NCBI GenBank assembly: GCA_001778985.1
Contig: MFIU01000004.1
Span: 3,067-67,066, forward strand
Length of the DNA: 64,000 nucleotides
Reading direction: 5' to 3'
Source: Candidatus Giovannonibacteria bacterium RIFOXYD1_FULL_48_21
GTDB taxonomy: Bacteria > Patescibacteriota > Minisyncoccia > JACPKW01 > UBA11713
The notes under the pieces: generated by a model
What the model was told of the DNA's origin: nothing
Database searches by the model: none
The model's input: only the letters and a program-made list of their open reading frames with translations
Shown here: positions 6,915-56,964 of the stretch, piece by piece
Numbering within the stretch: the first letter of the stretch is position 1
How the letters are laid out: each line of letters starts with the position of its first letter
Position numbers and translations under genes: made by a program

Positions 6915-8440
6915 GACGAGGGCTTCGGACAGTCAGCCCCTCGACTCGGTGCTATGCACCTCGCTCGGGGTAAACCCTAGAAATCCAGGATTTATCCTGA
7001 GTGAGATACGCAGTATCGAATCGAAGGACCGCCATCGTTAACCTTCTCGCATTGGTCAGGCGTCACCCCCTATACATCCTCTTACGAGTTCGCAGGGAGC
7101 TGTGTTTTTGATAAACAGTCGCCAGGGGTACTTTCGCTGCGCCCCGCCTGCCATATATTTCTATACGTTGGCGGGGAGGCCTTATTCCGAAGTTACGGCC
7201 GCTTTTTTGCCGAGTTCCTTGAGGATCTCTCACTCGTTCGCCTGAGGCTACTCGCCTCACCCACCTGTGTCGGTTTTCGGTACGGTTTCCCTCTTCATAA
7301 TCTTAGAAGCTTTTCTAGGAAGGCTGCTTTGTTCCATTTCCTCCGCCGAGGCGGAAAATTTTTGCTCGACTAAGAGTTGCCAAAAGGCCGTCCCGAGATT
7401 TTCTACGGGACACTCCTCATCGCACAAACGCGAATCCAATAACACGCAGAACATACTAACCTTCGTCCCTTCATCGAAAAAGAAGGAAGTCACGGAATAT
7501 TAACCGTGTGTCCATTACCTGCGGCTTTCGCCATTGGCTTAGGACCGACTAACCCTTGGCTGACAATCATTGCCAAGGAAACCTTAGGTTTGCGGCGTGC
7601 CGGTTTTTCACCGGCATTGTGGTTACTTGTGCCAACATTCTCACTTCCCAGCGCTCCATCCCGGCTCACGCCGTGGACTTCACTGCACTAGGAACGCTCT
7701 CCTACCCCCCGCTTTACATTAATATTTCAAATGTTAGCGGAGCCTCACCTTCGGCACTCTCTTTAGTCCCGATTATCTGCGGCGCAAGGTCTCTTGACGA
7801 GTGAGCTGTTACGCACTCTTTGAAGGATGGCTGCTTCTAAGCCAACCTCCTCGCTGTCATTGAAACCTCACCGCCTCACTTACACTTAAGAGAGATTTTG
7901 GGGCCTTAGATTGAGATCTGGGCTGTTGCCCTCTCGACCGACGGAGCTTAGCCCCCGTAGTCTGACTGGCCGCCCAAAGCTACGCCATTCGGAGTTTGGT
8001 AGGTACGTCGAGATTTCTCCCTTTACGAACCTTCCAGTAGCTCTACCTGCGTAGTTGTAGCGGACGCTAGCCCAAAAGCTATTTCGGAGAGAACCAGCTA
8101 TTCCCAGGTTCGATTAGCTTTTCACTCCTACCCCCAACTCATCCGATAGCGTTGTACGACTAACCGGTGCGGACCTCCTCCCGCCTTTCGGCGGGATTCA
8201 TCCTGGCCAGGGGTAGCTCACCTGGCTTCGGGTCTATAGCAAACTGCAAACGCCCTATTAAGACTCGGTTTCCCTACGCCTCCTCCCGCTATAACGGAAT
8301 TAGACTAGCAGCGTACTATAACTCGTTGGCTCATTCTTCAATAGGCACCCCGTCACCCTGAACACGCTTGCGCGTGAACGGGCTCCGAGTCCTTGTAAGC
8401 ATATGGTTTCAGGTACTATTTCACCGCCCTCACCGGGCTG

Positions 8441-19285: not shown

Positions 19286-20818
19286 CTATTCGAATGTTTC
19301 CATTATAGCCGAGGTTCGCTCGGCGAGCAATTCCCGCTCCAGGCCTTTTTGCTCCAAATCGAAAGAACTGAAAATTTCGGCCCATTCAGGGTCAAACCCC
19401 GGTTCTAAATATGGCGGCTCTTCGTCCGGAAGTTCCTCCAGGCGCCGAAACTCCTCCGGATATTTTTCGAAGAATTCCTGGACCGCTAGCGGGATATTGA
19501 AAGTGGGGGCCAGCGCCAAAATCGAAACATCCAAGCTCAAAAACGTCCGGGCAAACAGAACGCCGGCCTCCGGCATTCTGATGCCGGAACGTTCGGCTAA
19601 TTGAAAAAGTTCCATGAACTTGTGCATGGGGCTTTTTTCATGAATGGGGCCCCCGTCTCTGGAAGCTCGGTGCCAGCGAGTCATAAGGTCGTCCAACTCT
19701 TCTTTAATTCTTTTCAAAAATATATTTTTCATGAACTGAATTCGAATCCAATACTGCGGGTAGGTCGTCTTAGCTTCGGACAATATTTCCAAAAGAGGGG
19801 TGCGCACCATCTCCAAAAAAGCTTTAACGCCCGCTTCCAAATCTTCTTTCGCGACGGCCTTAATGTATCTGGCAAATTTCTTGCGGTCGGAAATTTTTAT
19901 CTCGGCCGCGATCCCGGCGTCAACCAGCCCCAAGCCTCCGCCGTCCAGAACCAAAATATTGGCCGGGTGCGGGTCGGCATGGAAAAAACCCTCGAACAAA
20001 AAAGAGTAAAGCTCAAAGAAAATGGCCTCTCGAAAAAAGGAGCTGGCGTCCGGCGGAGGAGTGTTGGAGAGATAGAAAGATTTTAAAGTCTGGCCCTCTA
20101 TAAACTCCATAACCAATATTCTCCGGGTTGTATATTCCAAATGGGCTTTCGGGATTTTTATCCGCAGTTTGCCCCTCGCTACTTGCTCCCGAAGACGCGT
20201 CAGATTTTCCGCTTCTTTGAGATAGTCCATTTCCCGCTCGGTCAAGTGAATAAAATCGCGGACCACCTTCTGGGGGTCGACCGTTTTGACGATGCCGGTT
20301 TTGCCAATCACCCAGGCGAGGAAGGAAAAAAAGCGGGCATCCATAGAAAAATCTTCAGCCACAAACGGCCGCTGAACCTTGAGCGCGACCTTCCTGCCTT
20401 GACTCGCGTCAGGCGAGGCAGGCTCCCCCTCCGCCAGCCAGGCCGCGTGCACCTGTCCGAAAGAAGCGGCCGAAAGAGGTTTTCGTTCGAACTTCGAAAA
20501 AACTTCTTCCGGACGCTTGCCGTATTCTTTGATAAAAATTCCGTCCAAAAGCTGCGGCTCAATCGGAGAAACATCGTCTAAAAGCCCCAAAAGCTCCCGG
20601 CAGTATTCCTCCGGAAAATAGTCGGGGCGGACCGAAGCCAGCTGGCCGAACTTCAAAAAACTTCCGCCGAGCTCTTCCAGTATTCCCCGCAAATCTTTGG
20701 GGGAAATAAAAGGCTTGGCCCCGCCGAAAATTTTCTGCCGCAAAATCTTAAAAGCGTAATCGACAATAACTTCAAAGACTAAAAAATACCTGCCCGCTCT
20801 TTGCAGAAACCTAGACAT
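19286..20818 (-). CDS. UbiB/ABC1 (aarF-domain) atypical protein kinase
   Basis: ASFGQVHAAW, HADPHPANILV and VDAGI motifs of the ABC1/UbiB kinase family. Confidence 0.75.
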   Translation of the reverse strand: MSRFLQRAGRYFLVFEVIVDYAFKILRQKIFGGAKPFISPKDLRGILEELGGSFLKFGQLASVRPDYFPEEYCRELLGLLDDVSPIEPQLLDGIFIKEYGKRPEEVFSKFERKPLSAASFGQVHAAWLAEGEPASPDASQGRKVALKVQRPFVAEDFSMDARFFSFLAWVIGKTGIVKTVDPQKVVRDFIHLTEREMDYLKEAENLTRLREQVARGKLRIKIPKAHLEYTTRRILVMEFIEGQTLKSFYLSNTPPPDASSFFREAIFFELYSFLFEGFFHADPHPANILVLDGGGLGLVDAGIAAEIKISDRKKFARYIKAVAKEDLEAGVKAFLEMVRTPLLEILSEAKTTYPQYWIRIQFMKNIFLKRIKEELDDLMTRWHRASRDGGPIHEKSPMHKFMELFQLAERSGIRMPEAGVLFARTFLSLDVSILALAPTFNIPLAVQEFFEKYPEEFRRLEELPDEEPPYLEPGFDPEWAEIFSSFDLEQKGLERELLAERTSAIMETFE

Positions 20819-20822
20819 TTTA

Positions 20823-20987
20823 TCAGGAAATTCGCGGAGTTCGAAAACCCAAATAAGCCAAAACTACGGTCCCGAAAGCCGCGATAGACAGGACGTATTC
20901 CGGGTTCGACTTGGGTCTCGCCCCAATAATCCAGGCCGAGAGAATCCAAATCGCCACGATAGCGACAGAAGTCCAAGCGTACTTCAT
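20823..20987 (-). CDS. small membrane protein (54 aa), paralog of 19096..19269
   Basis: Hand-translated as MKYAWTSVAIVAIWILSAWIIGARPKSNPEYVLSIAAFGTVVLAYLGFRTPRIS. Shares the MKY-W...IW...GFxTP pattern with the other copy. Preferred over the out-of-frame track ORF 20779..20976. Confidence 0.55.
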   Translation of the reverse strand: MKYAWTSVAIVAIWILSAWIIGARPKSNPEYVLSIAAFGTVVLAYLGFRTPRIS

Positions 20988-34608: not shown

Positions 34609-34736
34609 AATATTATTTAAATTAATATTTAATAAAGACCTTATACAAATAATAACACCACTTGAGAAAAAACGCATTCCTCTTTATAGTAAGTTATTGC
34701 ATTCCCCGGTAGCTCAGCGGTAGAGCGACTCCCTGT

Positions 34737-35291
34737 GGAGAAAGTTCATTAAGTCTAGTGGTATACTTCAGTGAGTATGCCAGACAAAAGAACTTATGCC
34801 GATCGTGCAAAGTACTTAAGCAAGTACGTATCAAAACGCCGAAAGAAGCTGAAACAGATGGTTGTAGCATATAAGGGTGGTAAGTGCGTGCTTTGCGGGT
34901 ATAGCAAGTACGAAGGCGCATTTGATCTTCATCATATTGATGAGTCAAAAAAAGAATTCGGCTTATCGACAAGAGGCCTGACAAGATCTTGGGAAAAGAC
35001 AAAACGAGAAGCCGATAAGTGCGTTTTAGTATGTGCTAATTGTCATCGCGAATTGCACGGTGGTATTACGCAGCTTTCCGCCGCAAGGCGGATTGAAAAA
35101 CGAGGTGAATTGCTGGAAACCTAAATCCTTTTGGACAAGGCAATCAGCAGCCAAGTCCCGCCATCGGCGGGAAAGGTTCAGAGACTATCTCGAAAGAGAG
35201 TAGTCCGACACAAAGTCGGACGAAGCGCCTCGCCCCTGCAAAATCAGGGTGATGATATAGTCCACCCCCATAAGAAATTTTGGGACAAGTG
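34737..35291 (+). mobile_element. group I intron with HNH homing endonuclease ORF
   Basis: Core segment CAGCAGCCAAGTCC...GTTCAGAGACTATCTCGAAAGAGAGTAGTCCGACACAAAGTCGGACG matches group I P6/P7/P3/P8 consensus (compare Tetrahymena GUUCACAGACUAAAUGUCGGUCGG). Confidence 0.75.
34777..35124 (+). CDS. HNH homing endonuclease (intron-encoded)
   Basis: CVLCGYSKYEGAFDLHHID...CANCHRELH, an HNH motif with flanking Zn-binding Cys pairs. Confidence 0.75.
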   Translation: MPDKRTYADRAKYLSKYVSKRRKKLKQMVVAYKGGKCVLCGYSKYEGAFDLHHIDESKKEFGLSTRGLTRSWEKTKREADKCVLVCANCHRELHGGITQLSAARRIEKRGELLET

Positions 35292-35350
35292 TAAGGAGTG
35301 GGTCGCAGGTTCGAATCCTGCCCGGGGAGCCAAGAAACTAGATACGAACT

Positions 35351-35560
35351 ATGTCAAAGCAAGAAGCGACAATCGGCGAGAATATAAAGAAATACCGAAA
35401 CAAGCTCGGCATTTCTCAAGATGTCCTCTCAAAAAGGGCAAACCTTGCTTTTCATACCATCGCCAAGATTGAAGCGGGAGCGACGCCGAACCCGACCATT
35501 GAAACTGTTAAGAAAATCACGGATGCGCTCGGCGTATCGCTTGATGATTTAATGAAATAA
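35351..35560 (+). CDS. XRE-family HTH regulator (candidate RM controller protein)
   Basis: IGENIKKYRNKLGISQDVLSKRANLAFHTIAKIEAG is a Cro/C1-type HTH. The stop is translationally coupled to the next gene. Confidence 0.7.
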   Translation: MSKQEATIGENIKKYRNKLGISQDVLSKRANLAFHTIAKIEAGATPNPTIETVKKITDALGVSLDDLMK

Positions 35561-35561
35561 T

Positions 35562-35894
35562 ATGTCCGAGAGCCAAAAGAAAACAATCAAAGATTTACCA
35601 GAGGACGAGCGGCCGCGCGAGAAATTATTAAAATACGGCGCTGATAAATTGAGCAACACGGAACTTCTCGCCATACTCTTGCGGACTGGCACAAAGGGGA
35701 AATCAGCGATTGATATGGCGGAGGAAATTTTGAAAAGCGCCGGCGGCACATTTAAAGGTTTGGCCGGAAAAGACACAGAAGATATTACCAAAATGCTGGG
35801 CCTAAAAAATGCTAAAGTTGCTACGGTCGCCGCTGCTTTAGAAATTTCGCGTCGTGTTTCCAAGCAGATATTAAAAGATAAAGGAATTATCTAA
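35562..35894 (+). CDS. RadC-like (UPF0758) N-terminal HhH domain only, no JAB/MPN domain
   Basis: DLPEDERPREKLLKYGADKLSNTELLAILLRTGTKGKSAIDMAEEIL matches the RadC N-terminal signature. The ORF ends at 110 aa. Confidence 0.55.
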   Translation: MSESQKKTIKDLPEDERPREKLLKYGADKLSNTELLAILLRTGTKGKSAIDMAEEILKSAGGTFKGLAGKDTEDITKMLGLKNAKVATVAAALEISRRVSKQILKDKGII

Positions 35895-35895
35895 T

Positions 35896-37890
35896 ATGCC
35901 AAAACTACCTGATCCATTTTCTACAAAACCGACCAAAGAGCAGATTCAGACAACGCGCGAGATTTTGGACGCTATTTTTAAAGACCCCCAAGTCAAATAC
36001 GGCTTGCGGGAGTTTTCGAAACTAAAAATAGAGGAAGCTATCACGATTTTTGAAAAAGAAAAAGACAAATTTTATATCCACTGCCTCAAACGCGATAAAG
36101 ATATTGCGGTTTATGACAAAAGCAAAAATACCGGCAAGCCGGAAGAAATTATCCGTCAGCTTTGGCTTGTCAGATTGATTAGAGATTATCGCTACCCCCC
36201 CGATAGAATTGATGTTGAGGTTGACGTACATTTCGGCACAGAAGTCCACAGAAAAGCCGCCGATATAATGATTTACCAGGACGATAAGGAAACGCCCTAC
36301 ATTGTTTTTGAATTAAAGAAGCCGAAAGTTGAAGACGGGATAGATCAGTTAAAAAGCTATCTAAACTCCAAAGGTTCGCCGATTGGTGTTTGGTCCAACG
36401 GAAACGAGCGGGTTATTCTTTATCGTCCCTATCCGAAAAAATTTGAAAACAACTTGCGGGCAATCCCTCGCGTTGACCAGACAATTGAGGATGTTCTGGA
36501 AGAACGGCTTACCTTGGAAAAATTGACCTCCGACTATGATTTGAGCGAGCGCATTAAAATTTTGGAGGAACTGGTGCTTGCTAATGCCGGAGTTGATGTC
36601 TTCCAGGAAGTTTTCAAACTCATTTACGCAAAACTTTATGATGAAAAAGAAGCGCGCTCGCGCCCGGACAAAGAGGTTTATTTCCGAATGTCCAAGGACC
36701 CGAAATTTACTTTTGACATTGTTAATCGGCTATTCAAGGAATCTGTTTTGGAGTGGCCGGGAATTTTTACTCCTCACGATGAACTTCAATTATCACCCGA
36801 ACATCTTGCCGTTTGCGTTTCAGAGTTGGAAGACATAAAACTCCTTGATTCAAGCTTGGAAATTATTGACACCGCTTTTGAATATCTTTTGCCGGAAGTG
36901 GCGAAAGGCAAAAAAGGACAATACTTTACGCCTCGCCATGTGATTGATATGGCGGTAAAAATGCTCAATCCGCGCGATAAAGAATACATTGTTGACCCAG
37001 CGGCAGGGTCGGGCGGCTTTCTTATCCACGCTATGCAGTGGGTTTGGAGCCATGACTTGAAAGAAACGCCGCACGAAAAGCAGGTTGACTATGCCCGCCG
37101 GTATCTTTTCGGCATTGATTTTGACGATAAGCCGGTAAAAATCTCCCGCGCCTTGATGCTTATTGCCGGAGACGGCCGCTCGCATATTTTCAAACTTAAT
37201 TCTCTTAATCCGAAAGAATGGCAAGGTTCTGACTCTGAAAAAGAAAATGCGAGAGCAGAACTTCGCAAACTACTTCTTAAAACCGGTGATTACGAAGCAG
37301 ACCGAAACAACGAGGAAAATTTCCGCAGTTTTGCTTTTGATGTTTTACTTACCAATCCGCCGTTTGCCGGAAAAATCAAAGAGCAAATGCTATTGCGAGA
37401 GTATGAACTAGCCAAAAACAAAAAAGGTAAAATTCCTAAACAAGTCGGCCGCGATCTTCTTTTCATTGAGCGGGCGCTTCAACTAATAAAGCCCGGCGGG
37501 CGTTTAGCAATCGTCCTCCCCCAAGGCAAGCTAAACAACACGAATACCGAATACATCCGCCAGTGGTTGTTAGGTAGGGCGCGAGTTTTAGCGGTTGTCG
37601 GATTGCATGGTAACACCTTCAAACCGCATACCGGCACTAAAACCTCTCTATTATTTTTGCAGAAATGGGGCGGCGAAGCCGGAAGGCCAGAAGACGATTA
37701 CCCAATTTTTATGGCAACTTCCAAAAACTCTGGAAAAGATAATTCCGGAGAATATGTCTATAAAAAAGATGCGAAAGGAAATTTTGTTTTGGACGAACGC
37801 GGCCGCCGAATTTTACATCACGACTTGGATGAAGTTGCCGAGACATTCGTCAAATTCGCCAAAGAACAAAAATTTAGTTTTTGGAAATAA
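35896..37890 (+). CDS. restriction-modification protein: HsdR_N-like PD-(D/E)xK nuclease domain fused to gamma-class N6-adenine DNA methyltransferase (HsdM / type IIB A-subunit-like)
   Basis: N-terminal ADIMIYQDDKETPYIVFELKKPKVEDGIDQLKSY (D...ELK pattern of HsdR_N). MTase motif I VDPAAGSGGFL and motif IV LLTNPPF. Confidence 0.75.
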   Translation: MPKLPDPFSTKPTKEQIQTTREILDAIFKDPQVKYGLREFSKLKIEEAITIFEKEKDKFYIHCLKRDKDIAVYDKSKNTGKPEEIIRQLWLVRLIRDYRYPPDRIDVEVDVHFGTEVHRKAADIMIYQDDKETPYIVFELKKPKVEDGIDQLKSYLNSKGSPIGVWSNGNERVILYRPYPKKFENNLRAIPRVDQTIEDVLEERLTLEKLTSDYDLSERIKILEELVLANAGVDVFQEVFKLIYAKLYDEKEARSRPDKEVYFRMSKDPKFTFDIVNRLFKESVLEWPGIFTPHDELQLSPEHLAVCVSELEDIKLLDSSLEIIDTAFEYLLPEVAKGKKGQYFTPRHVIDMAVKMLNPRDKEYIVDPAAGSGGFLIHAMQWVWSHDLKETPHEKQVDYARRYLFGIDFDDKPVKISRALMLIAGDGRSHIFKLNSLNPKEWQGSDSEKENARAELRKLLLKTGDYEADRNNEENFRSFAFDVLLTNPPFAGKIKEQMLLREYELAKNKKGKIPKQVGRDLLFIERALQLIKPGGRLAIVLPQGKLNNTNTEYIRQWLLGRARVLAVVGLHGNTFKPHTGTKTSLLFLQKWGGEAGRPEDDYPIFMATSKNSGKDNSGEYVYKKDAKGNFVLDERGRRILHHDLDEVAETFVKFAKEQKFSFWK

Positions 37891-37899
37891 ATTACTCTT

Positions 37900-38871
37900 A
37901 TGAATACTGAAGAATATAAAAAAATAGATTGGAACAAACTACTTCGTAAGGACTTGGGCGAGTATAGTTTGGAAGTGGCGAAGCCAAATCTCGACAGAAT
38001 AAAGTCGATATTTGACGAGATTTTGAATTATCCAAACCTCGATCAGCTATCTGATAATTTTAAAAATCAGATTCAATCACAACTTAATTCCTTGGTGCAA
38101 TTTGCGAATCAGATTGTAAATAACTTTCAAAATACGAGTGAGCGTCAAACTTGGATCAATAATATAAAAAATAAGGAGTTCGAAGTTTATCAAAATCTCT
38201 CAAATATCTATGGGTATATAAAGGATTTTGATCCGGCAAGAGATGAACGGCTGAAAGATGTTATTAAAAAGTCAGAGGAACGTATAAAAAAGTTAAATGA
38301 GGATTTAAGTAAAACAGAAGCTCTTTTGCAGCAGGCGCAGAAAAAGGCAGTTCAAAGCGAAGTAATGGAATATGGAAACTTCTTTGGAAATGAGGCGGTA
38401 AAAAACGAGAGAACGGCAAAAATAAACCGATGGCTAATGTTCGGAAGTGTTGCTTTAACTGCTGTGCTCTCTGTTATCTTTCTACAAAACATCAAATTTG
38501 TTTCATCAGAAGAAATGACATTTTTTGAAAATGTCCTACAAACTATAAATGCACAAAACATACTTATAAAGTTTGTTTTGCTCTCGCTGGGCGGTTTCTT
38601 GATTGCTCATTTTTCAAAAGTACATTCAACGGAGAAAAACTTGTATAACCTCAATATCCAGCGACAAAATGCGCTTAATTCTCATAAACAAATTCTTGAT
38701 TCAGTAGTTGCTACTGAAAGTGAAAATGAGAAAGAAGTTAGAAACGCGATTTTACTTGAACTTACTAAAGCAATTTTTGCTAACCATGAGACCGGTTACT
38801 TGAAGGGTTCTAAAGATAATCCTGGGCCAGCAAGCCAGATAGTAGAGATAACAAAGACTTTACCGAAGTAA
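37900..38871 (+). CDS. hypothetical coiled-coil protein with two TM helices, embedded between the M and S genes
   Basis: 323 aa. About 170-aa Asn/Gln/Lys-rich coiled-coil N-domain, helices WLMFGSVALTAVLSVIFL and ILIKFVLLSLGGFLIAHF, and a 90-aa C-tail. No family. Confidence 0.5.
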   Translation: MNTEEYKKIDWNKLLRKDLGEYSLEVAKPNLDRIKSIFDEILNYPNLDQLSDNFKNQIQSQLNSLVQFANQIVNNFQNTSERQTWINNIKNKEFEVYQNLSNIYGYIKDFDPARDERLKDVIKKSEERIKKLNEDLSKTEALLQQAQKKAVQSEVMEYGNFFGNEAVKNERTAKINRWLMFGSVALTAVLSVIFLQNIKFVSSEEMTFFENVLQTINAQNILIKFVLLSLGGFLIAHFSKVHSTEKNLYNLNIQRQNALNSHKQILDSVVATESENEKEVRNAILLELTKAIFANHETGYLKGSKDNPGPASQIVEITKTLPK

Positions 38872-38873
38872 TC

Positions 38874-40238
38874 ATGCAGTATTCAATAATCCAAAAATCA
38901 CGACTTGAAGGTGGCCTACGGCTAGACGCGGAATTTTACCATCCGGAAAAATTAGAGGCGATGGAAAAGTTATCTAAATTCGGCATTAGCACTATTGCCG
39001 AGAATTTTCGGAACGTAAAAGAAACTTTTAACCCCCTCCGACATAAGTTAGCTACCACCCCCGCTCGCGTTTTTGATTTGTCTGATGTGAGTTCTTTTCT
39101 ACTGGAAGCAGGAGCAAAAGTAGAAAAAGCCGATGAAGTCGGCTCTACAAAAAAGATTATTCGCCAAAATGATGTTTTGATTTCTCGCTTGAGGCCTTAT
39201 CTCAAGGAAGTTTCTTTTGTGGGGTTTAATGAGGTTCAAAAACTGGCTTCAACCGAGTTTGTGGTTTTACGAAAAAAGAAGGATTCAAAGTTTCCTCCGC
39301 AAGCCCTTTTTGCATTTTTAACAACAGACGAAGTTCAAAATATTTTATTCTGGAGTCAAGGAGGAACAGAACATCCTCGCTTTTCCGAAAATCTTTTGAT
39401 GGGCTTAAAATTGCCGAAAACTTCGGAAAAGATGGCAGAAAGTATCGTAGATGATGTTAACGGCACTTACAAAAATTATCTGATATCACAAAATCTTTAC
39501 TCTCAAGCCGAGGATTTGCTGTTGGAAGAATTAGGATTGAAAGATAAAGATTTTGAGATTAAGGACGATTTGGCTTATATCGTCAATCTTTCTGAAATAA
39601 AATCCAACCATCGCGCTGACGCCGAATACTTCCAGCCGAAGTACGAAAACATTATGTCTCTAATTCGCGCGAATGGTGGAACAATGCTTGGCGATTTAGC
39701 AACGATGAAAAAAGGCATTGAGCCGGGGAGTGAGGTATATCAAGATGAGGGCAAACTATTTATTCGTGTAAGCAGCTTGTCTAAAAATGGGCTTGAAGAC
39801 AAAGACCAAAAGTATTTAAGCGATGAATTGTATCAGAAGTTAAAGAAAAATTACGAGCCGAAAGTTGGCGAGATTTTACTAACCAAAGACGCAACGCCAG
39901 GCACCGCTTATGTAGTGAAAGAGCCGATTGAGGGGATTGTTTCGAGCGGCATTTTACGCTTGAAGTTAAAGAATGAAAAGGTGGAAAATGAATATCTGGC
40001 ATTGTGTCTTAATTCCGTAATCGGACAAACTCAAGCGGAGCGCGATGGTGGGGGTTCTATCATTACACACTGGAGACCGGAACAAATCAAAAATGTTTTA
40101 ATTCCGATTTTACCCAAACCCACCCAGCAGAAAATCGCCGACTTAGTCCAAAAATCCCACGAAGCCCGCTCAAAAGCAAAACAACTTTTAGAACAAGCCA
40201 AATATAAAGTTGAACAATTGATTGAATCTAAAAAATAA
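38874..40238 (+). CDS. hsdS: type I-like specificity subunit HsdS (two target-recognition domains)
   Basis: Internal duplication with conserved LDAEFYHPEKLEAMEKL and ADAEYFQPKYENIMSLI spacer motifs typical of HsdS. Confidence 0.75.
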   Translation: MQYSIIQKSRLEGGLRLDAEFYHPEKLEAMEKLSKFGISTIAENFRNVKETFNPLRHKLATTPARVFDLSDVSSFLLEAGAKVEKADEVGSTKKIIRQNDVLISRLRPYLKEVSFVGFNEVQKLASTEFVVLRKKKDSKFPPQALFAFLTTDEVQNILFWSQGGTEHPRFSENLLMGLKLPKTSEKMAESIVDDVNGTYKNYLISQNLYSQAEDLLLEELGLKDKDFEIKDDLAYIVNLSEIKSNHRADAEYFQPKYENIMSLIRANGGTMLGDLATMKKGIEPGSEVYQDEGKLFIRVSSLSKNGLEDKDQKYLSDELYQKLKKNYEPKVGEILLTKDATPGTAYVVKEPIEGIVSSGILRLKLKNEKVENEYLALCLNSVIGQTQAERDGGGSIITHWRPEQIKNVLIPILPKPTQQKIADLVQKSHEARSKAKQLLEQAKYKVEQLIESKK

Positions 40239-40258
40239 TAATGTTAATTTTATAAATT

Positions 40259-41179
40259 ATGGCCAACTTATATTGGAAAAAGGATAAAAAAATATTTGCT
40301 GCCACAGAAACTCCATTTAAAACAGAAGAGGAGCTTGAGCATTATCTTTTAGATACGCGAGGAATTCTTAGCGATATTTATATTTTAAATAGACAAGTGA
40401 GGGCGAGGGCGGTTTCTGGTATAGAAATTCCGGACATGGTTGGAGTGGATAGCGAAGGAACGATTGTGATTATTGAGAACAAAAATATTCCCGTTGATGA
40501 AAAAATTATTTCGCAAGTGCTTAATTATGCACTTTGGGCAGAAGCAAATCCAGATTCAATAAAGAATCTTTGGCTTGAAGCCGAACAAGAGGGCACAGAG
40601 CCCGAGTGGGACAACCTACAAATTCGCATTATTATTGTCGCGCCTGAAATAAAACAACACTTGGCAAAATTTATATCGAAAATAGGATACCCGATCGATT
40701 TATTAGAAATCAAAAAATTCAACATAGGTAAAGACGAATTTATAGTTCTTAATAAGATTGAGGCCAATGTTTTTACTGCAAAGCCGGTTCATGGAAAAAG
40801 GAGCTATGATATCGCTTACTACGCAAAAGGGCATAATAAAGAGAGTGTTAAAAAATTTGAACAAGTTGTAAATCGCGTTGAGAGTTTTATTCACAAAAAT
40901 GGATGGAAATTGGAAAAGAAATTTAATCAAGGATATATAGGTTTCAAATACGGCTTCCCATTGGTTTTTGGTATCCAATGGCTTGGAAGTAGGTCATTTG
41001 GTTTCTTTTTCAAAATGCCTAAATCAAAAATGAAGAAAATCATTGTCCCTGGCCTTGAGTTTAGAGGATATATTGATAGGTGGAGTCAAGTTGAATACAA
41101 AATTAACTCGCCCGATTTTGATATTAAAAAATTAACTCCCTTATTTTTGGCTTCCTACAAATACATAAGGGGGGGGTAA
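40259..41179 (+). CDS. PD-(D/E)xK nuclease-fold protein with uncharacterised C-terminal domain
   Basis: IPDMVGVDSEGTIVIIENKNIPVDEKIISQVLNYALW fits the D-x(n)-E-x-K restriction-endonuclease-like core. About 170-aa C-terminal domain unknown. Confidence 0.5.
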   Translation: MANLYWKKDKKIFAATETPFKTEEELEHYLLDTRGILSDIYILNRQVRARAVSGIEIPDMVGVDSEGTIVIIENKNIPVDEKIISQVLNYALWAEANPDSIKNLWLEAEQEGTEPEWDNLQIRIIIVAPEIKQHLAKFISKIGYPIDLLEIKKFNIGKDEFIVLNKIEANVFTAKPVHGKRSYDIAYYAKGHNKESVKKFEQVVNRVESFIHKNGWKLEKKFNQGYIGFKYGFPLVFGIQWLGSRSFGFFFKMPKSKMKKIIVPGLEFRGYIDRWSQVEYKINSPDFDIKKLTPLFLASYKYIRGG

Positions 41180-41234
41180 AAATTTGTGGCGCACCAGCTA
41201 ACGCTGGCACAAATTCCGTCGGCGCAAAAAGCGA

Positions 41235-41277
41235 GGGCGCGGCGGAAGGGGGGTGTGGGGGGAATTCCGCCGCGCCC
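41235..41277. repeat. perfect 13-bp GC-rich inverted repeat (GGGCGCGGCGGAA / TTCCGCCGCGCCC) with G-rich loop GGGGGGTGTGGGGGGAA
   Basis: Read directly from the sequence, just downstream of the island's last gene. Confidence 0.6.
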
Positions 41278-41501
41278 GAGCCGGAAGCGAAGCGTCAGAA
41301 ATCAGTGTCAGGATTTTCGCGAAAAAAAGTTCGGATTTCGTTCAGGGTGTGGAGCCAGTAGCAAACTTAAGTCATTTTCAGAAAAATTTTTGCGTGCGAC
41401 GCAAAGCGTCGCCCATTGTTTTGCGGGGATTTCTTCAACTTTTTTATTTCGTAAAGTCAGGTTCGAGCCGAATATTTTTTGGAGAACTATAAATAATTTT
41501 T

Positions 41502-42667: not shown

Positions 42668-42859
42668 CTATCTTAACCTACCAATAGTTGACTATCTTGA
42701 ATGGGGAAATCGAGCCTTTTATTTCCCAAATTGCGGTTCGAAATGCGTGAAGCGCGCGGAACCAGTATAAAACTTCTCTCATTTTCAGAAAAACAGGGAA
42801 AGTATTATATTTGGCTCCCGAATTAAAACCTTCTCAAACTTATGTTAAAATAAATAAGT

Positions 42860-47777: not shown

Positions 47778-48320
47778 ATGAAAATTGAAGACGTAAAAAC
47801 GGCAATCAAGGTAGGCGATTTTGTACTAAGAAAAGATAATCGGAATAAGATAGATATTAAATATTCACCCGACCTTGATAAAGAAGTTCTTATTGACGAC
47901 TCAGCGAGAATATATTTGATCGTTCAAGACGGGATCATAAAGAAAATAGGTGGCTCTATTCAAAAGGGAGGCATTAAAGGAACTGTAAGTTTTTATATTG
48001 GCGCTATGACGGGGAGTCCTGGCAGGCCCAGGTTTATTTTACATTTACTCATTGAAAAAGCTCTTAAAAGCAAATCAAAAATGGAATTACATATGATTAC
48101 TTCCCCAAAAACTATGGCTAGGGTGAGTGGTTTATTTAGAACTAAGAAAATGAAAATTGCTAGTTTTAAGGAGATGGAAGATTTATGTAAGTCCGATTAC
48201 TATTCCAGAGAAAAGAAATATCCAGATTGGAACTTTCAAGAGAACCATAAACCATATCCCCCAGAATTAGAAAGGAAGTTCATGGCATATCATAGGAGGC
48301 GTTTAGGCAGAAAAAACTAA
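47778..48320 (+). CDS. hypothetical protein
   Basis: 180-aa ORF, by eye AT-rich. Confidence 0.4.
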   Translation: MKIEDVKTAIKVGDFVLRKDNRNKIDIKYSPDLDKEVLIDDSARIYLIVQDGIIKKIGGSIQKGGIKGTVSFYIGAMTGSPGRPRFILHLLIEKALKSKSKMELHMITSPKTMARVSGLFRTKKMKIASFKEMEDLCKSDYYSREKKYPDWNFQENHKPYPPELERKFMAYHRRRLGRKN

Positions 48321-49852
48321 TTTCTGGGCGGACAAAAAATTATTATCTCGTGAGATTCTTTTACATGGTTGCCGTTGCCGTTTTTTCGGTTTAATCCGAT
48401 TCTTGTTTCTCCTTGTCCCATAGTATATTGCCAACTAGGGAAGAATTGCTGAAATTCTTTGTAGTATTCTCTTATTGTGGGACAGTTGTTATAAGAAAGA
48501 ACAAAACCTCCTTTGTGGTTTTTTAATAAATCTCTCAAAGCCTCGTGCGGAAACCCATTATGATGGACTGGTATATTCCTCATTGGATAAATTCCTTTAA
48601 ACATTTTTGAATCTTTTCCGATATAGTAAGGGGGGTCGCAGTAAAGAAAATCATTTGGGTGATTTTTAATTACCTCCTGAAAATCTACACACTCTACTTT
48701 CAGATTATTCGGGTCAAAATCCCGAATATTTTCTATCATTCTTTTGTATCTTTTGTCGTTTAGGTAAATCTTAGACGACCAACCCATAAAGCCGGGGCCG
48801 TAGGATAAGTTAAAATTATAAACAAAATAAACTGCCAAAGTTAGCGGATCTAATTTTGTTTTTTTCTTCCAAACATCATTTAAAATCAAACGTATTTTTT
48901 CAAAGGTTGTTTTATTTGGCTTTAATTCTTTCAGTTTTTTGTAAAGAAGGTCTGATTTTTCTATTTGGAATTTCCAATAATTACAGAGAATATCGAAGAT
49001 ATCGTAGCCGATAACTTCTAGGCCCAGCTCCTTGCTCATGGCTATTTCAATAGAGCCGCCCCCAAAAAATGGAGAGACAATCCTGGTTATGTTACCGGGC
49101 AATAATTCAACTACATGTCCGACCGCTAAACTTTTCCCTCCCGCATATCTTATTGGAGAAAGAACAACTCTTTTATATTTATTTTGACTATTTGAATTTT
49201 TGCTTCTTATACGATCTAAAAAGACTTTCTTTTTGTAGGCGAGCGTGTTGTCTTTGGCACCATTTTCTAGGTTTCTTATAATTCTAACTACAACACCCCT
49301 TATTTCTACTTCCTTGCGATAAATTGGCAACATCGCCTGGTTCGCTGGCTGTAATTTAATACGGCCTTTCTCTCTATAAATCTTCTTGAGCGTTACTTCA
49401 TTGTCATCAATAATTGCGACAATAGTCTGTCCGTCATCAGCAGTTTTTTGTTTACGAATTACAACAACATCACCATCAAAAATTCCATCACCAATCATAC
49501 TATCCCCTGCAACTTTTAGGGCGTAATGTTCACCATGCTTACCTATAAAATCTCCAGGAATAGAAATTTTTTCTGGTATCTCAATCGCCTCAATGGGGTG
49601 CCCGGCGGCGATGGTGCCCAAAAGAGGAATCTTGATTAATTTTTCTGCGGATGAAATTTCAATGCTCCGGCGCTGGTTTTTCCGTTTATTTAGATATCCC
49701 TTTTCTCTTAGCGCCTCGATATGCTGGTGGATGTTAGAAACAGAGGAAAGGCGCAGGCGCTTTCGTATGTCCTCAAGCGAGGGCGCAAAGCCGCGCTTTT
49801 TGGTGTAGGAGGTTACAAAATCCAAGACCTGCTTCTGCCGAGGAGTTAGCAT
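48317..49852 (-). CDS. LexA repressor (HTH + S24 autopeptidase) fused to Dam-class (D12) N6-adenine DNA methyltransferase
   Basis: Residues 1-205 hold a LexA-type HTH, the AG cleavage site (TIAAGHP), VAGDSMIGDGIFDGD (catalytic Ser), TLKK (catalytic Lys) and VVRIIRN. After a 35-aa linker come PIRYAGGKS, SPFFGGGS (motif I) and LYCDPPYY (motif IV), as in Dam. Single uninterrupted 511-codon frame. Confidence 0.7.
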   Translation of the reverse strand: MLTPRQKQVLDFVTSYTKKRGFAPSLEDIRKRLRLSSVSNIHQHIEALREKGYLNKRKNQRRSIEISSAEKLIKIPLLGTIAAGHPIEAIEIPEKISIPGDFIGKHGEHYALKVAGDSMIGDGIFDGDVVVIRKQKTADDGQTIVAIIDDNEVTLKKIYREKGRIKLQPANQAMLPIYRKEVEIRGVVVRIIRNLENGAKDNTLAYKKKVFLDRIRSKNSNSQNKYKRVVLSPIRYAGGKSLAVGHVVELLPGNITRIVSPFFGGGSIEIAMSKELGLEVIGYDIFDILCNYWKFQIEKSDLLYKKLKELKPNKTTFEKIRLILNDVWKKKTKLDPLTLAVYFVYNFNLSYGPGFMGWSSKIYLNDKRYKRMIENIRDFDPNNLKVECVDFQEVIKNHPNDFLYCDPPYYIGKDSKMFKGIYPMRNIPVHHNGFPHEALRDLLKNHKGGFVLSYNNCPTIREYYKEFQQFFPSWQYTMGQGETRIGLNRKNGNGNHVKESHEIIIFCPPRN

Positions 49853-55743: not shown

Positions 55744-56964
55744 ATGATGTCAAGTTCAAATGAAAATTCAAGCGCCGGTTTCTATGGCCTGGGCATTGCT
55801 CCGACCCTTTTAGAAATCCTGGCGCGCCATCGTTTTAAAACTCCAACCCCGATTCAGACGCAGGCAATTCCGCTCGCGATTCAAGGCAAAGACCTCGTGG
55901 GCATCGCGCAGACCGGAACCGGAAAAACGCTCGCTTTCGGAATCCCGATAATTCAGCGCCTGGCGCAGATAAAAGGACAGGGACTCGTAATTCTGCCCAC
56001 GCGGGAGTTAGCGCTCCAAGTGGAAGAAGTCTTCCATCGCGTGGGCCGCGGTCTCGGACTGCGGACCGCGGTTCTAATCGGGGGGCTTTCTTTTAAACCG
56101 CAACTGCAGGCCCTCTCTCAAAAACCGCACGTCATCGTCGCGACTCCCGGCAGACTCATCGACCACTTGCGGCAAAAAAATCTCCGCTTGGACGCGGTTC
56201 GGATTGTGGTGCTGGACGAGGCGGACCGCATGCTGGATATGGGATTTATGCCGCAGATTCAAAAAATTCTGCAAGCCCTGCCAAAGGACCGCCAGACCAT
56301 GCTTTTCTCCGCGACCATGCCGCCGGAAATAATGAAACTCGCCTCCTCCCACATGAAACTCCCGATTCGGGTGGAGATTGCTCCCGCGGGAACGACGGTG
56401 GAACAAGTGACCCAGGAGCTTTTCGTGGTCAAAAAAGAGCAGAAATTGGTGCTCCTTGAAAAACTGCTTGAAGCCTATCAGGGCCCGGCGCTGGTTTTCG
56501 CCAGAACAAAATACGGAGCCGAGAAAGTGATGCGCTACATCCGAAATCTTGGAATAAAAGCGGCCGACATCCATTCCAACCGCTCGCTTCCCCAGCGCCG
56601 CGAAGCGCTGGCGGGATTCAAATCGGGAAAATACCGGGTGCTGGTGGCGACCGACATCGCTTCCCGCGGCCTCGATGTCATAGGCATCGAATTGGTTTTG
56701 AATTTTGACCTGCCCTCGACTTCTGAAGATTACGTCCATAGAATCGGACGCACCGCCCGGGCCGGAGCCAAAGGACACGCGATTACTTTCGCGATGCCGG
56801 ACGAGGGCCGAGAAATCCGCGCGATTGAAAACTTAACCAAAAAAGTTCTGCCGATATCAAAACTTCCGGAATCTCTCGCCCGAACCGGTTCCGAATTCAT
56901 AAAACCGGCCGCGCGCCCGTATTATCGGCCTTATCGCCATCCGCGCCGCCGCGGATACAGATAA
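55744..56964 (+). CDS. DEAD-box ATP-dependent RNA helicase
   Basis: Q-motif TPTPIQ, Walker A AQTGTGKT, DEAD (VLDEADRM), SAT, and HRIGRTARAG. Basic C-tail. Confidence 0.9.
   Translation: MMSSSNENSSAGFYGLGIAPTLLEILARHRFKTPTPIQTQAIPLAIQGKDLVGIAQTGTGKTLAFGIPIIQRLAQIKGQGLVILPTRELALQVEEVFHRVGRGLGLRTAVLIGGLSFKPQLQALSQKPHVIVATPGRLIDHLRQKNLRLDAVRIVVLDEADRMLDMGFMPQIQKILQALPKDRQTMLFSATMPPEIMKLASSHMKLPIRVEIAPAGTTVEQVTQELFVVKKEQKLVLLEKLLEAYQGPALVFARTKYGAEKVMRYIRNLGIKAADIHSNRSLPQRREALAGFKSGKYRVLVATDIASRGLDVIGIELVLNFDLPSTSEDYVHRIGRTARAGAKGHAITFAMPDEGREIRAIENLTKKVLPISKLPESLARTGSEFIKPAARPYYRPYRHPRRRGYR

Follow-up and report, generated by a model that had tools for sequence, protein, structure and literature searches.

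The 64-kb window analysed here (the whole stretch of 64,000 nucleotides (nt) taken from contig MFIU01000004.1 of Candidatus Giovannonibacteria bacterium RIFOXYD1_FULL_48_21, a tiny groundwater bacterium of the candidate phyla radiation) carries an operon of six plus-strand genes that we read, with a probability of roughly 0.6, as a type IIB-like restriction-modification (R-M) frame with embedded defence cargo, modular in its make-up and not one six-part machine. The frame consists of a nuclease-methyltransferase fusion (M) and a specificity subunit (S), and the gap between their genes is a swappable cassette slot with exact boundaries, which holds different cargo in different lineages. In this genome the slot holds P4, as we call a helical protein with two transmembrane (TM) helices, and a gene of the PADLOC candidate family PDC-S18 follows S. 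The original prediction for this DNA, made by a model from the sequence alone, had described six tightly coupled plus-strand genes; their coordinates and spacing were confirmed by our listing of open reading frames (ORFs), with successive spacers of 1, 1, 9, 2, and 20 nt, and profile searches agreed with its domain calls for all six products, which are as follows.

35351..35560, plus strand: XRE helix-turn-helix (HTH) protein of 69 amino acids (aa), similar to R-M control (C) proteins (Pfam HTH_3, 9e-15; PADLOC Control_protein, 1e-9).
35562..35894, plus strand: stand-alone RadC N-terminal (UPF0758_N) protein, RadC_N, 110 aa (Pfam, 1.8e-28).
35896..37890, plus strand: M ('RM' subunit), HSDR_N_2 nuclease plus gamma-class N6-adenine (N6A) methyltransferase, 664 aa (Pfam, PADLOC).
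37900..38871, plus strand: P4, helical protein of 323 aa with two TM helices, cargo of the M-S slot (AlphaFold2 model, hydropathy).
38874..40238, plus strand: S, HsdS-type specificity subunit of 454 aa with two target-recognition domains (Pfam Methylase_S, 6e-13).
40259..41179, plus strand: PDC-S18 family protein, 306 aa (PADLOC PDLC04944).

Evidence for the slot comes from 80 metagenome loci (M 55–94% identical), which we annotated with our own mechanical ORF calls and hidden Markov models (HMMs); these are the closest relatives from one scan and may include related lineages, and the counts given here ignore kinship. M and S were adjacent in just three of the 53 loci that hold both genes. In the other 50 (94%) the slot was filled, with 250–2270 bp encoding one to three plus-strand ORFs, and the distances from M to cargo and from cargo to S were mostly within ~30 nt. 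The 62 cargo ORFs fell into ~48 families without detectable mutual similarity. P4 and PDC-S18 were absent from 79 of the 80 loci, the exception being locus L025, which has a partial PDC-S18. At the DNA level, the window is 84–89% identical to loci L021, L025, and L026 until position 37892, two bases beyond the M stop codon, P4 remains unaligned, and identity is back at 38873–38880, at the start of S; the junction alignment shows the conserved 3' coding end of M and 5' coding end of S abutting unrelated cargo. Because frames 84–89% identical to this one lack P4 and the boundaries coincide with the M stop and S start codons, we conclude that P4 occupies the slot as an exchangeable cassette. L021 carries RadC_N and M, followed by two proteins of 73 and 348 aa, then S, and finally a 306-aa protein with 97% identity to the PDC-S18 protein, and the DNA homology of this locus with the window stops at 41223; a 193-aa protein lies between M and S in L022, and a 285-aa protein in L023. 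The treatment of the six genes as one system in the original prediction is thus not sustained, as the content of the slot that P4 occupies differs in almost every related locus.

The recognisable slot genes were overwhelmingly of defence type, and more than half of the slot genes had no recognisable domain. Pfam identified NYN, trypsin-like protease, DUF3800, Schlafen/AlbA_2, OLD-type AAA_15/AAA_21, KAP NTPase, and DUF4145 domains, and PADLOC identified PD-T7-1, PD-T7-4, PD-T7-5, PDC-M04A, PDC-S45, Old, AriA, and LmuA. Many slot genes can thus be recognised as anti-phage genes, and the suggestion that the extra genes are defence-type accessories outside canonical R-M systems is supported. One recurrent slot family of 169–198 aa (L022 9979–10560, L031 4018–4614, L065 8971–9480) had no Pfam match and carries a HEPN RNase-like R-x4-H motif (…IRCGLIHGE…), which we read by eye.

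On sequence grounds, M and S are best described as a putative helicase-less, type IIB-like R-M frame. Pfam placed an HSDR_N_2 domain at residues 82–191 of M and an N6_Mtase domain with NPPF at residues 322–661, as expected for the predicted fusion of an HsdR_N-type nuclease with an NPPF-type N6A methyltransferase. In an alignment of M (A2) reaching down to 50% identity, E83/E84, D123, E139, K141, and the motif IV NPPF were invariant, as were D367, A369, G371, S372, G374, and F375 of motif I (DPAxGSGGF), with P368 and G373 conserved at 90% or more. E83/E84, D123, E139, and K141 match the E-D-ExK quartet, described as absolutely conserved in type IIB enzymes (BsaXI structure paper, PMC11997821). 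RM.BsaXI, a type IIB enzyme, was also the best match of M in the Protein Data Bank (PDB; E 1e-33), aligned over residues 234–592 only, the methyltransferase part. Additionally, M matched the REBASE-derived PADLOC model MTase_I (PDLC03034) over its full length with 639 bits, and scored 38 bits against TIGR00497 hsdM, below equivalog level (cut-off 243). The S protein aligned over its full length to NCBIfam MAD5 and PADLOC Specificity_I, consistent with the predicted HsdS with two target-recognition domains and with a TRD1-CR1-TRD2-CR2 organisation; its conserved ends align with related loci, and the target-recognition domains diverge. The M family is very large, with at least 7839 homologous clusters at E < 1e-30, mostly from Patescibacteria/candidate phyla radiation (CPR) and DPANN-type metagenome bins.

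No HsdR or Res was found in the 64-kb window, whose longest ORF encodes an 850-aa P-type ATPase; inspection of L006, L008, and L021–L023, the related loci with annotation, likewise showed no HsdR. The sole superfamily 2 (SF2) protein of the window is a 406-aa DEAD-box protein at 55744–56964, 14.5 kb from the operon, so that the predicted absence of an SF2 HsdR motor from the window was borne out. Together with the domain calls and with RM.BsaXI as the closest solved structure, this supports the proposal that a nuclease-methyltransferase and an S subunit without a motor represent a BcgI/BsaXI (type IIB) architecture. Like BsaXI and BcgI, the frame combines an N-terminal PD-(D/E)xK domain fused to a gamma-class N6A methyltransferase with a separate S subunit with two target-recognition domains, and has no motor. 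It differs from type IIB systems in the size of M (664 aa against 916 aa in BsaXI, and therefore probably without the 'paddle'), in the cargo gene that interrupts the RM and S genes, and in its dedicated XRE/RadC_N or LexA-like regulators. Type I R-M systems differ in having HsdR, which is lacking from the operon in the window, and in their M subunits, given the score of our M below the hsdM equivalog cut-off.

Among named families, the closest relatives of M and S are MAD2 and MAD5 of MADS, which likewise has an upstream regulator and extra genes between the methyltransferase and S genes, namely two (mad3 and mad4) that are needed for defence. However, M scored 312.6 bits against MAD2 (cut-off 720) and S scored 122.3 bits against MAD5 (cut-off 400), P4 and PDC-S18 match no MADS model, and mad6–8 found no match among the seven proteins scanned (the six operon proteins and an HNH ORF described below), whereas MAD6, MAD7, and MAD8 are mandatory in the detection model of the MADS authors. 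Because the scores fall under the cut-offs and mad6–8 were unmatched in these seven proteins, membership in MADS was rejected, and we regard the operon as a MADS relative.

The nesting of defence genes in such operons has precedents. A 'guilt-by-embedding' survey described defence genes embedded in Type I R-M, BREX, DISARM, and Hma systems, including 62.7% of Hma systems (bioRxiv 10.1101/2024.01.29.577857), TgvAB is embedded in a type I R-M system of Vibrio cholerae (PMC11411939), and further published examples are PrrC in EcoprrI, rlo genes, and HEC/PDC candidates. The statement in the original prediction that the extra genes belonged to no canonical type I or IIB system known to its author overlooks this concept as well as MADS. 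Our locus resembles the published cases in its tight same-strand nesting within an R-M operon and in its diverse cargo, which includes known defence systems, and PDC-S18 is itself a candidate. In contrast to them, the carrier is a helicase-less nuclease-methyltransferase/S frame found mainly in CPR, instead of one of the type I, BREX, DISARM, and Hma systems, slot occupancy in our sample is 94% as opposed to 62.7% in Hma, the swapped segment is bounded exactly by the stop codon of M and the start codon of S, and P4 is not in PADLOC v2. While the embedding of defence genes and the candidate status of PDC-S18 were already known, we consider as new the CPR carrier, the near-universal occupancy of one slot, its exact boundaries, and the occurrence of P4 in three R-M types across phyla.

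P4 lies on the same strand as its neighbours, between M and S (9- and 2-nt spacers), and also occurs inside type III and other R-M loci. Homologues of P4 and of the PDC-S18 protein beside hsdM/hsdS genes had been proposed as a check on the original prediction, and P4 was indeed found between M and S of this frame in L006 (Ca. Azambacteria) and L008, in addition to the window. In L003 (Minisyncoccota) and L015 (Bdellovibrionales), it separates Mod from Res of a type III system; it is located after a type III-type methyltransferase and a Res fragment in L020 (Alphaproteobacteria), beside a pair formed by a PLD-SNF2 helicase and an Eco57I-type methyltransferase in L001 (Ekhidna) and L017 (Bdellovibrionales), and beside methyltransferase fragments in L002. 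A word-indexed search yielded 53 clusters of P4 homologues of 320–334 aa, except one of 296 aa, and an exhaustive profile search extended the superfamily to 2684 cluster representatives at E < 1e-3, 1383 of them at E < 1e-10. Neither IMG/VR viral contigs nor PLSDB plasmids contained P4.

No family in Pfam, NCBIfam, PHROG, or PADLOC covers P4; its Pfam matches to ArdA and ATP-synt_B were weak and treated as noise. The AlphaFold2 model (pLDDT 77) is all-helical, with an N-terminal bundle, a very long helix running into the first TM helix, the second TM helix, and a conserved C-terminal segment. The hydrophobic helices lie at residues ~177–198 and ~220–240, in agreement with the prediction of a coiled-coil protein with a pair of TM helices. 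From hydropathy and charge bias, the N and C termini are both expected in the cytoplasm; the C-terminal segment is highly conserved. Among 123 superfamily members, weak matches were obtained to AbiZ (four members, best 6.7e-6), SLATT_1 (one member, 2e-5), DUF6161 (eight members), and DUF2207_C (eleven members). The AbiZ and SLATT matches of these distant relatives are a lead, and not a demonstration, towards two-TM abortive-infection effectors, which P4 resembles in its two TM helices, cytoplasmic soluble parts, and defence-island context. P4 differs from those effectors in its large N-terminal helical domain and its distinctive conserved C-terminal motif. It also differs from PrrC and RloC, as it is helical with TM helices and has neither an ABC-ATPase N-domain nor an anticodon-nuclease C-domain; no ATPase motifs or matches were found in P4 with Pfam, PADLOC, or NCBIfam.

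Some further observations concern the surroundings of P4. A second gene joins P4 in L003 (7134–7988, 284 aa), L015 (10972–11715, 247 aa), and L010 (5979–6824, 281 aa), and these companions have no mutual similarity; translated with table 11, the L010 copies contain in-frame stops, which points either to a pseudogene or to an alternative genetic code. No PDB sequence match was obtained for neighbours of P4 in L019 and L013. L106, a distant superfamily member, lies near an integrase and is uninformative. In L008, a bAvd accessory gene lies beside a reverse-transcriptase gene (20017–20975), likely a diversity-generating retroelement, ~9 kb past the P4 operon.

The last gene of the operon encodes a protein that aligned to the PADLOC profile PDLC04944 with E 1.8e-105 (residues 1–305 to profile positions 1–306 of 307). 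It combines an N-terminal NucS/Shedu-like PD-(D/E)xK nuclease domain with a YdhG/YjbR-like C-terminal domain, and it matches no Pfam family. The call of a second PD-(D/E)xK-fold protein therefore holds, while its placement outside known systems does not, as the protein is already catalogued as the stand-alone PADLOC candidate PDC-S18. The criterion by which PADLOC PDC families were set up was itself embedding, in type I R-M, BREX, and DISARM systems, and a literature search for 'PDC-S18' returned no paper. Apart from the window, the gene comes after S in just two loci, L021 and L025 (partial in L025). PDC-S18 was not found in IMG/VR viral contigs or PLSDB plasmids.

If the locus is a type IIB-like frame with embedded cargo, an (RM)2S complex would methylate a bipartite site and cut unmodified DNA without ATP-driven translocation, P4 would serve as an independent second-line membrane effector of abortive-infection type, and PDC-S18 could form a third, DNA-targeting layer. 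The position of cargo between M and S may favour co-expression, co-transfer, and protection from deletion, and homologous recombination within the 3' coding end of M and the 5' coding end of S, both conserved, could allow cassettes to be swapped. Several observations weigh against this explanation. The nuclease domain of M has no sequence alignment to BsaXI, to which the methyltransferase part alone aligns, and the REBASE-derived PADLOC models name the M family 'Type I MTase'. The fold search with P4 gave generic coiled coils only, the P4 of the window itself matches no Abi or SLATT model, and six of the ~15 distinct P4 loci have no recognised R-M neighbour (the Pfam scan covered two of these six). 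Lastly, the 94% occupancy could mean that the frame requires a middle gene, as MADS requires mad3 and mad4.

That last point leads to the possibility that all six genes form one integrated, novel MADS-like system in which P4, RadC_N, and the trailing nuclease are obligatory partners of M and S. The proximity of M and S to MAD2 and MAD5, the two defence-essential genes at the same position in MADS, the filled slot in nearly all loci, and the renewed combination of RadC_N, M, S, and PDC-S18 in L021 and L025 would all fit such a system. However, unrelated genes replace P4 in almost identical DNA frames, P4 and PDC-S18 are missing from nearly all related loci, the MADS scores are far below their cut-offs (313 against 720 and 122 against 400) with mad6–8 unmatched, and many of the genes found in the slot represent defence systems with known stand-alone activity, so that we consider an integrated system quite unlikely. 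Occupancy could also be explained if M2S were a non-self sensor of unmodified sites and the slot protein a licensed effector providing an interchangeable 'R' function; this would account for the ~94% of filled slots and for the need of MADS for mad3 and mad4, and we regard it as a long shot. The frame might instead be a DNA-methylation (epigenetic) module with an inactive nuclease, whose slot genes are hitch-hikers without a role in defence, given that there is no motor or separate restriction subunit, that M and S pairs can methylate alone, and that most slot genes lack a recognisable domain. We find this improbable in view of nuclease catalytic residues that are invariant down to 50% identity, of the C-protein-like or LexA-like repressor that most loci have ahead of M, a feature to be expected if the enzyme is toxic, and of the defence character of the recognisable cargo.

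Other alternatives concern P4 alone. A guardian of the PrrC kind, which the R-M complex would keep silent until a phage anti-restriction protein disabled that complex and freed P4 to permeabilise the membrane, would explain why P4 sits inside three mechanistically different R-M types; PrrC, an effector embedded nearly always in type I loci, provides the precedent, and the cytoplasmic N-terminal helical domain of P4 could be a protein-interaction module. Such a guardian would nevertheless have to recognise R-M enzymes that are very unlike one another, there are several P4 loci without an R-M neighbour, and P4 resembles neither PrrC nor RloC in sequence or fold, which makes this role unlikely. 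P4 could also be a membrane tether or scaffold that holds restriction complexes where DNA enters the cell, by phage injection or through a competence pilus. CPR bacteria rely on DNA uptake, and two TM helices, large domains that are both cytoplasmic, and the association with several R-M types would suit this function, yet the great majority of frames hold other cargo and do not need P4, which would moreover have to bind unrelated enzymes; we therefore judge a tether very improbable.

Should the reading of a modular frame with embedded cargo be correct, an abundant R-M family of CPR and DPANN would constitute a natural catalogue of defence genes, and reading the genes between M and S in thousands of loci would offer a simple route to anti-phage proteins of uncultured lineages. 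P4 would then be a new candidate membrane protein that has moved, in six or more phyla, into three kinds of R-M operon. With its exact swap boundaries, the frame would also become a tractable model of defence-gene nesting, of how it arises and why, a question left open by the 'guilt-by-embedding' authors (bioRxiv 10.1101/2024.01.29.577857).

Upstream of M, the related loci have one of two genes, for a LexA-like S24 repressor or for RadC_N, in some cases together with an XRE gene; HMM matches among the 80 loci comprised 53 LexA-like ORFs and 15 RadC_N ORFs. The LexA-like repressor (~205–240 aa) lies directly 5' of M in most related metagenome loci and often overlaps the M start, with examples at 7370–8017 in L023 and 7401–8042 in L006 (among loci L042–L103 and others). 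Given this position, control of the R-M operons by self-cleavage or DNA damage is suggested. The RadC protein of the window has UPF0758_N only, without a JAB domain (Pfam), as the original prediction of a RadC N-terminal-only protein implied, and no displaced C-terminal (JAB) fragment was found anywhere in the window. In the 15 metagenome loci, RadC_N has 104–114 aa and a common C-terminus, ...SKQILK(D/E)KGI(I/L), which we noted in the window, L026–L041, and L056; an XRE gene also precedes RadC_N in L026, L031, and L056. The ratio of non-synonymous to synonymous substitution rates (dN/dS) of RadC_N was 0.03–0.12 in 13 pairwise comparisons with estimable dS. Because RadC_N is under such strong purifying selection, we rejected the idea of a RadC gene truncated by insertion and now decaying; RadC_N is a real gene and not a remnant, and a conserved partner directly 5' of M in this sub-lineage. 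A full-length RadC (234 aa, HNHPSG motif) occupies the RadC_N position in L064. Full-length RadC was also seen 5' of the P4-carrying type III operon in L003 and L004.

The operon begins directly 3' of a tRNA-Asn gene, as predicted, with the XRE start codon 19 nt past the CCA end, and this tRNA gene proved to be split by a group I intron that contains an HNH gene. The tRNA gene and the putative transcription signals of the region are as follows.

34662..34690, plus strand: sigma-70-like promoter match TTGAGA-17-TATAGT, the best of the region (10 of 12 matches).
34703..34736, plus strand: 5' exon of tRNA-Asn(GTT), read from the sequence.
34737..35291, plus strand: group I intron (~555 nt) in the anticodon loop of tRNA-Asn (Rfam RF00028, 83.5 bits, E 1e-21, over 35052–35284).
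34771–35124, plus strand: HNH homing-endonuclease-like ORF inside the intron, 117 aa (PHROG HNH endonuclease families, 3e-28).
35292..35332, plus strand: 3' exon of tRNA-Asn with encoded CCA, read from the sequence.
41396..41412, plus strand: intrinsic-terminator-like hairpin, the best after the last gene (7-bp stem with 6 GC pairs, T-rich tail).

On the window as it stands, ARAGORN called no tRNA near the operon and missed the intron-split gene (34703–35332); once the exons were joined (34736|35292), it called a 75-nt tRNA-Asn(GTT). A splice junction two bases off would yield tRNA-Thr(TGT), which was rejected in view of U1, the G73 discriminator, and the overall resemblance of the joined tRNA to bacterial tRNA-Asn. 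To our knowledge, group I introns have not been described in tRNA-Asn.

The promoter-like match sits immediately 5' of the tRNA-Asn gene, and the same scan found no comparable site between the tRNA and the XRE gene; the count of sigma-70-like sites in the region was not above that of shuffled sequences, and the match is merely suggestive. The hairpin at 41396..41412 is likely the end of the transcription unit. Given that the best promoter-like site lies 5' of the tRNA and the best terminator-like hairpin at 41396–41412, a promoter upstream of tRNA-Asn may drive the tRNA and the whole operon as one predicted co-transcript.

Adjacency to a tRNA had been read as a classic signature of island integration. 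We found no integrase within ±10 kb of the operon, no second copy of the tRNA-Asn 3' end in the window, and no suitable att-type repeats around the operon, and this signature is weak; what remains of it is that the same XRE/RadC_N-M unit occurs in other genomic contexts, twice near a tRNA-Gln gene, and that the flanks of L021 differ from those of the window. The tRNA-Gln(CTG) genes lie a few hundred nt 5' of the unit in L027 and L031, and in L031 a c-di-GMP-II riboswitch is located on the opposite strand just before the unit; these features were noted at 39–114 in L027 and at 868–941 and 534–616 in L031.

The region had also been described by eye as more AT-rich than its flanks, which is only partly true. 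The GC content of the island is 0.396, compared with 0.467 over the whole window, but it is the genes for P4 (0.345), S (0.398), and PDC-S18 (0.354) that lower it, whereas the XRE, RadC_N, and M genes have 0.43–0.44, and the window contains further low-GC patches at 10–11 kb and 48–49 kb. The latter patch (0.34) coincides with a minus-strand gene at 48317–49852 for a 511-aa protein that combines a LexA DNA-binding domain, Peptidase_S24, and a Dam-type MethyltransfD12 methyltransferase. Downstream of the operon, a 58-nt direct repeat (41329–41386 and 42736–42793, 76% identity) flanks small zinc-ribbon and short-chain dehydrogenase/reductase (SDR) genes.

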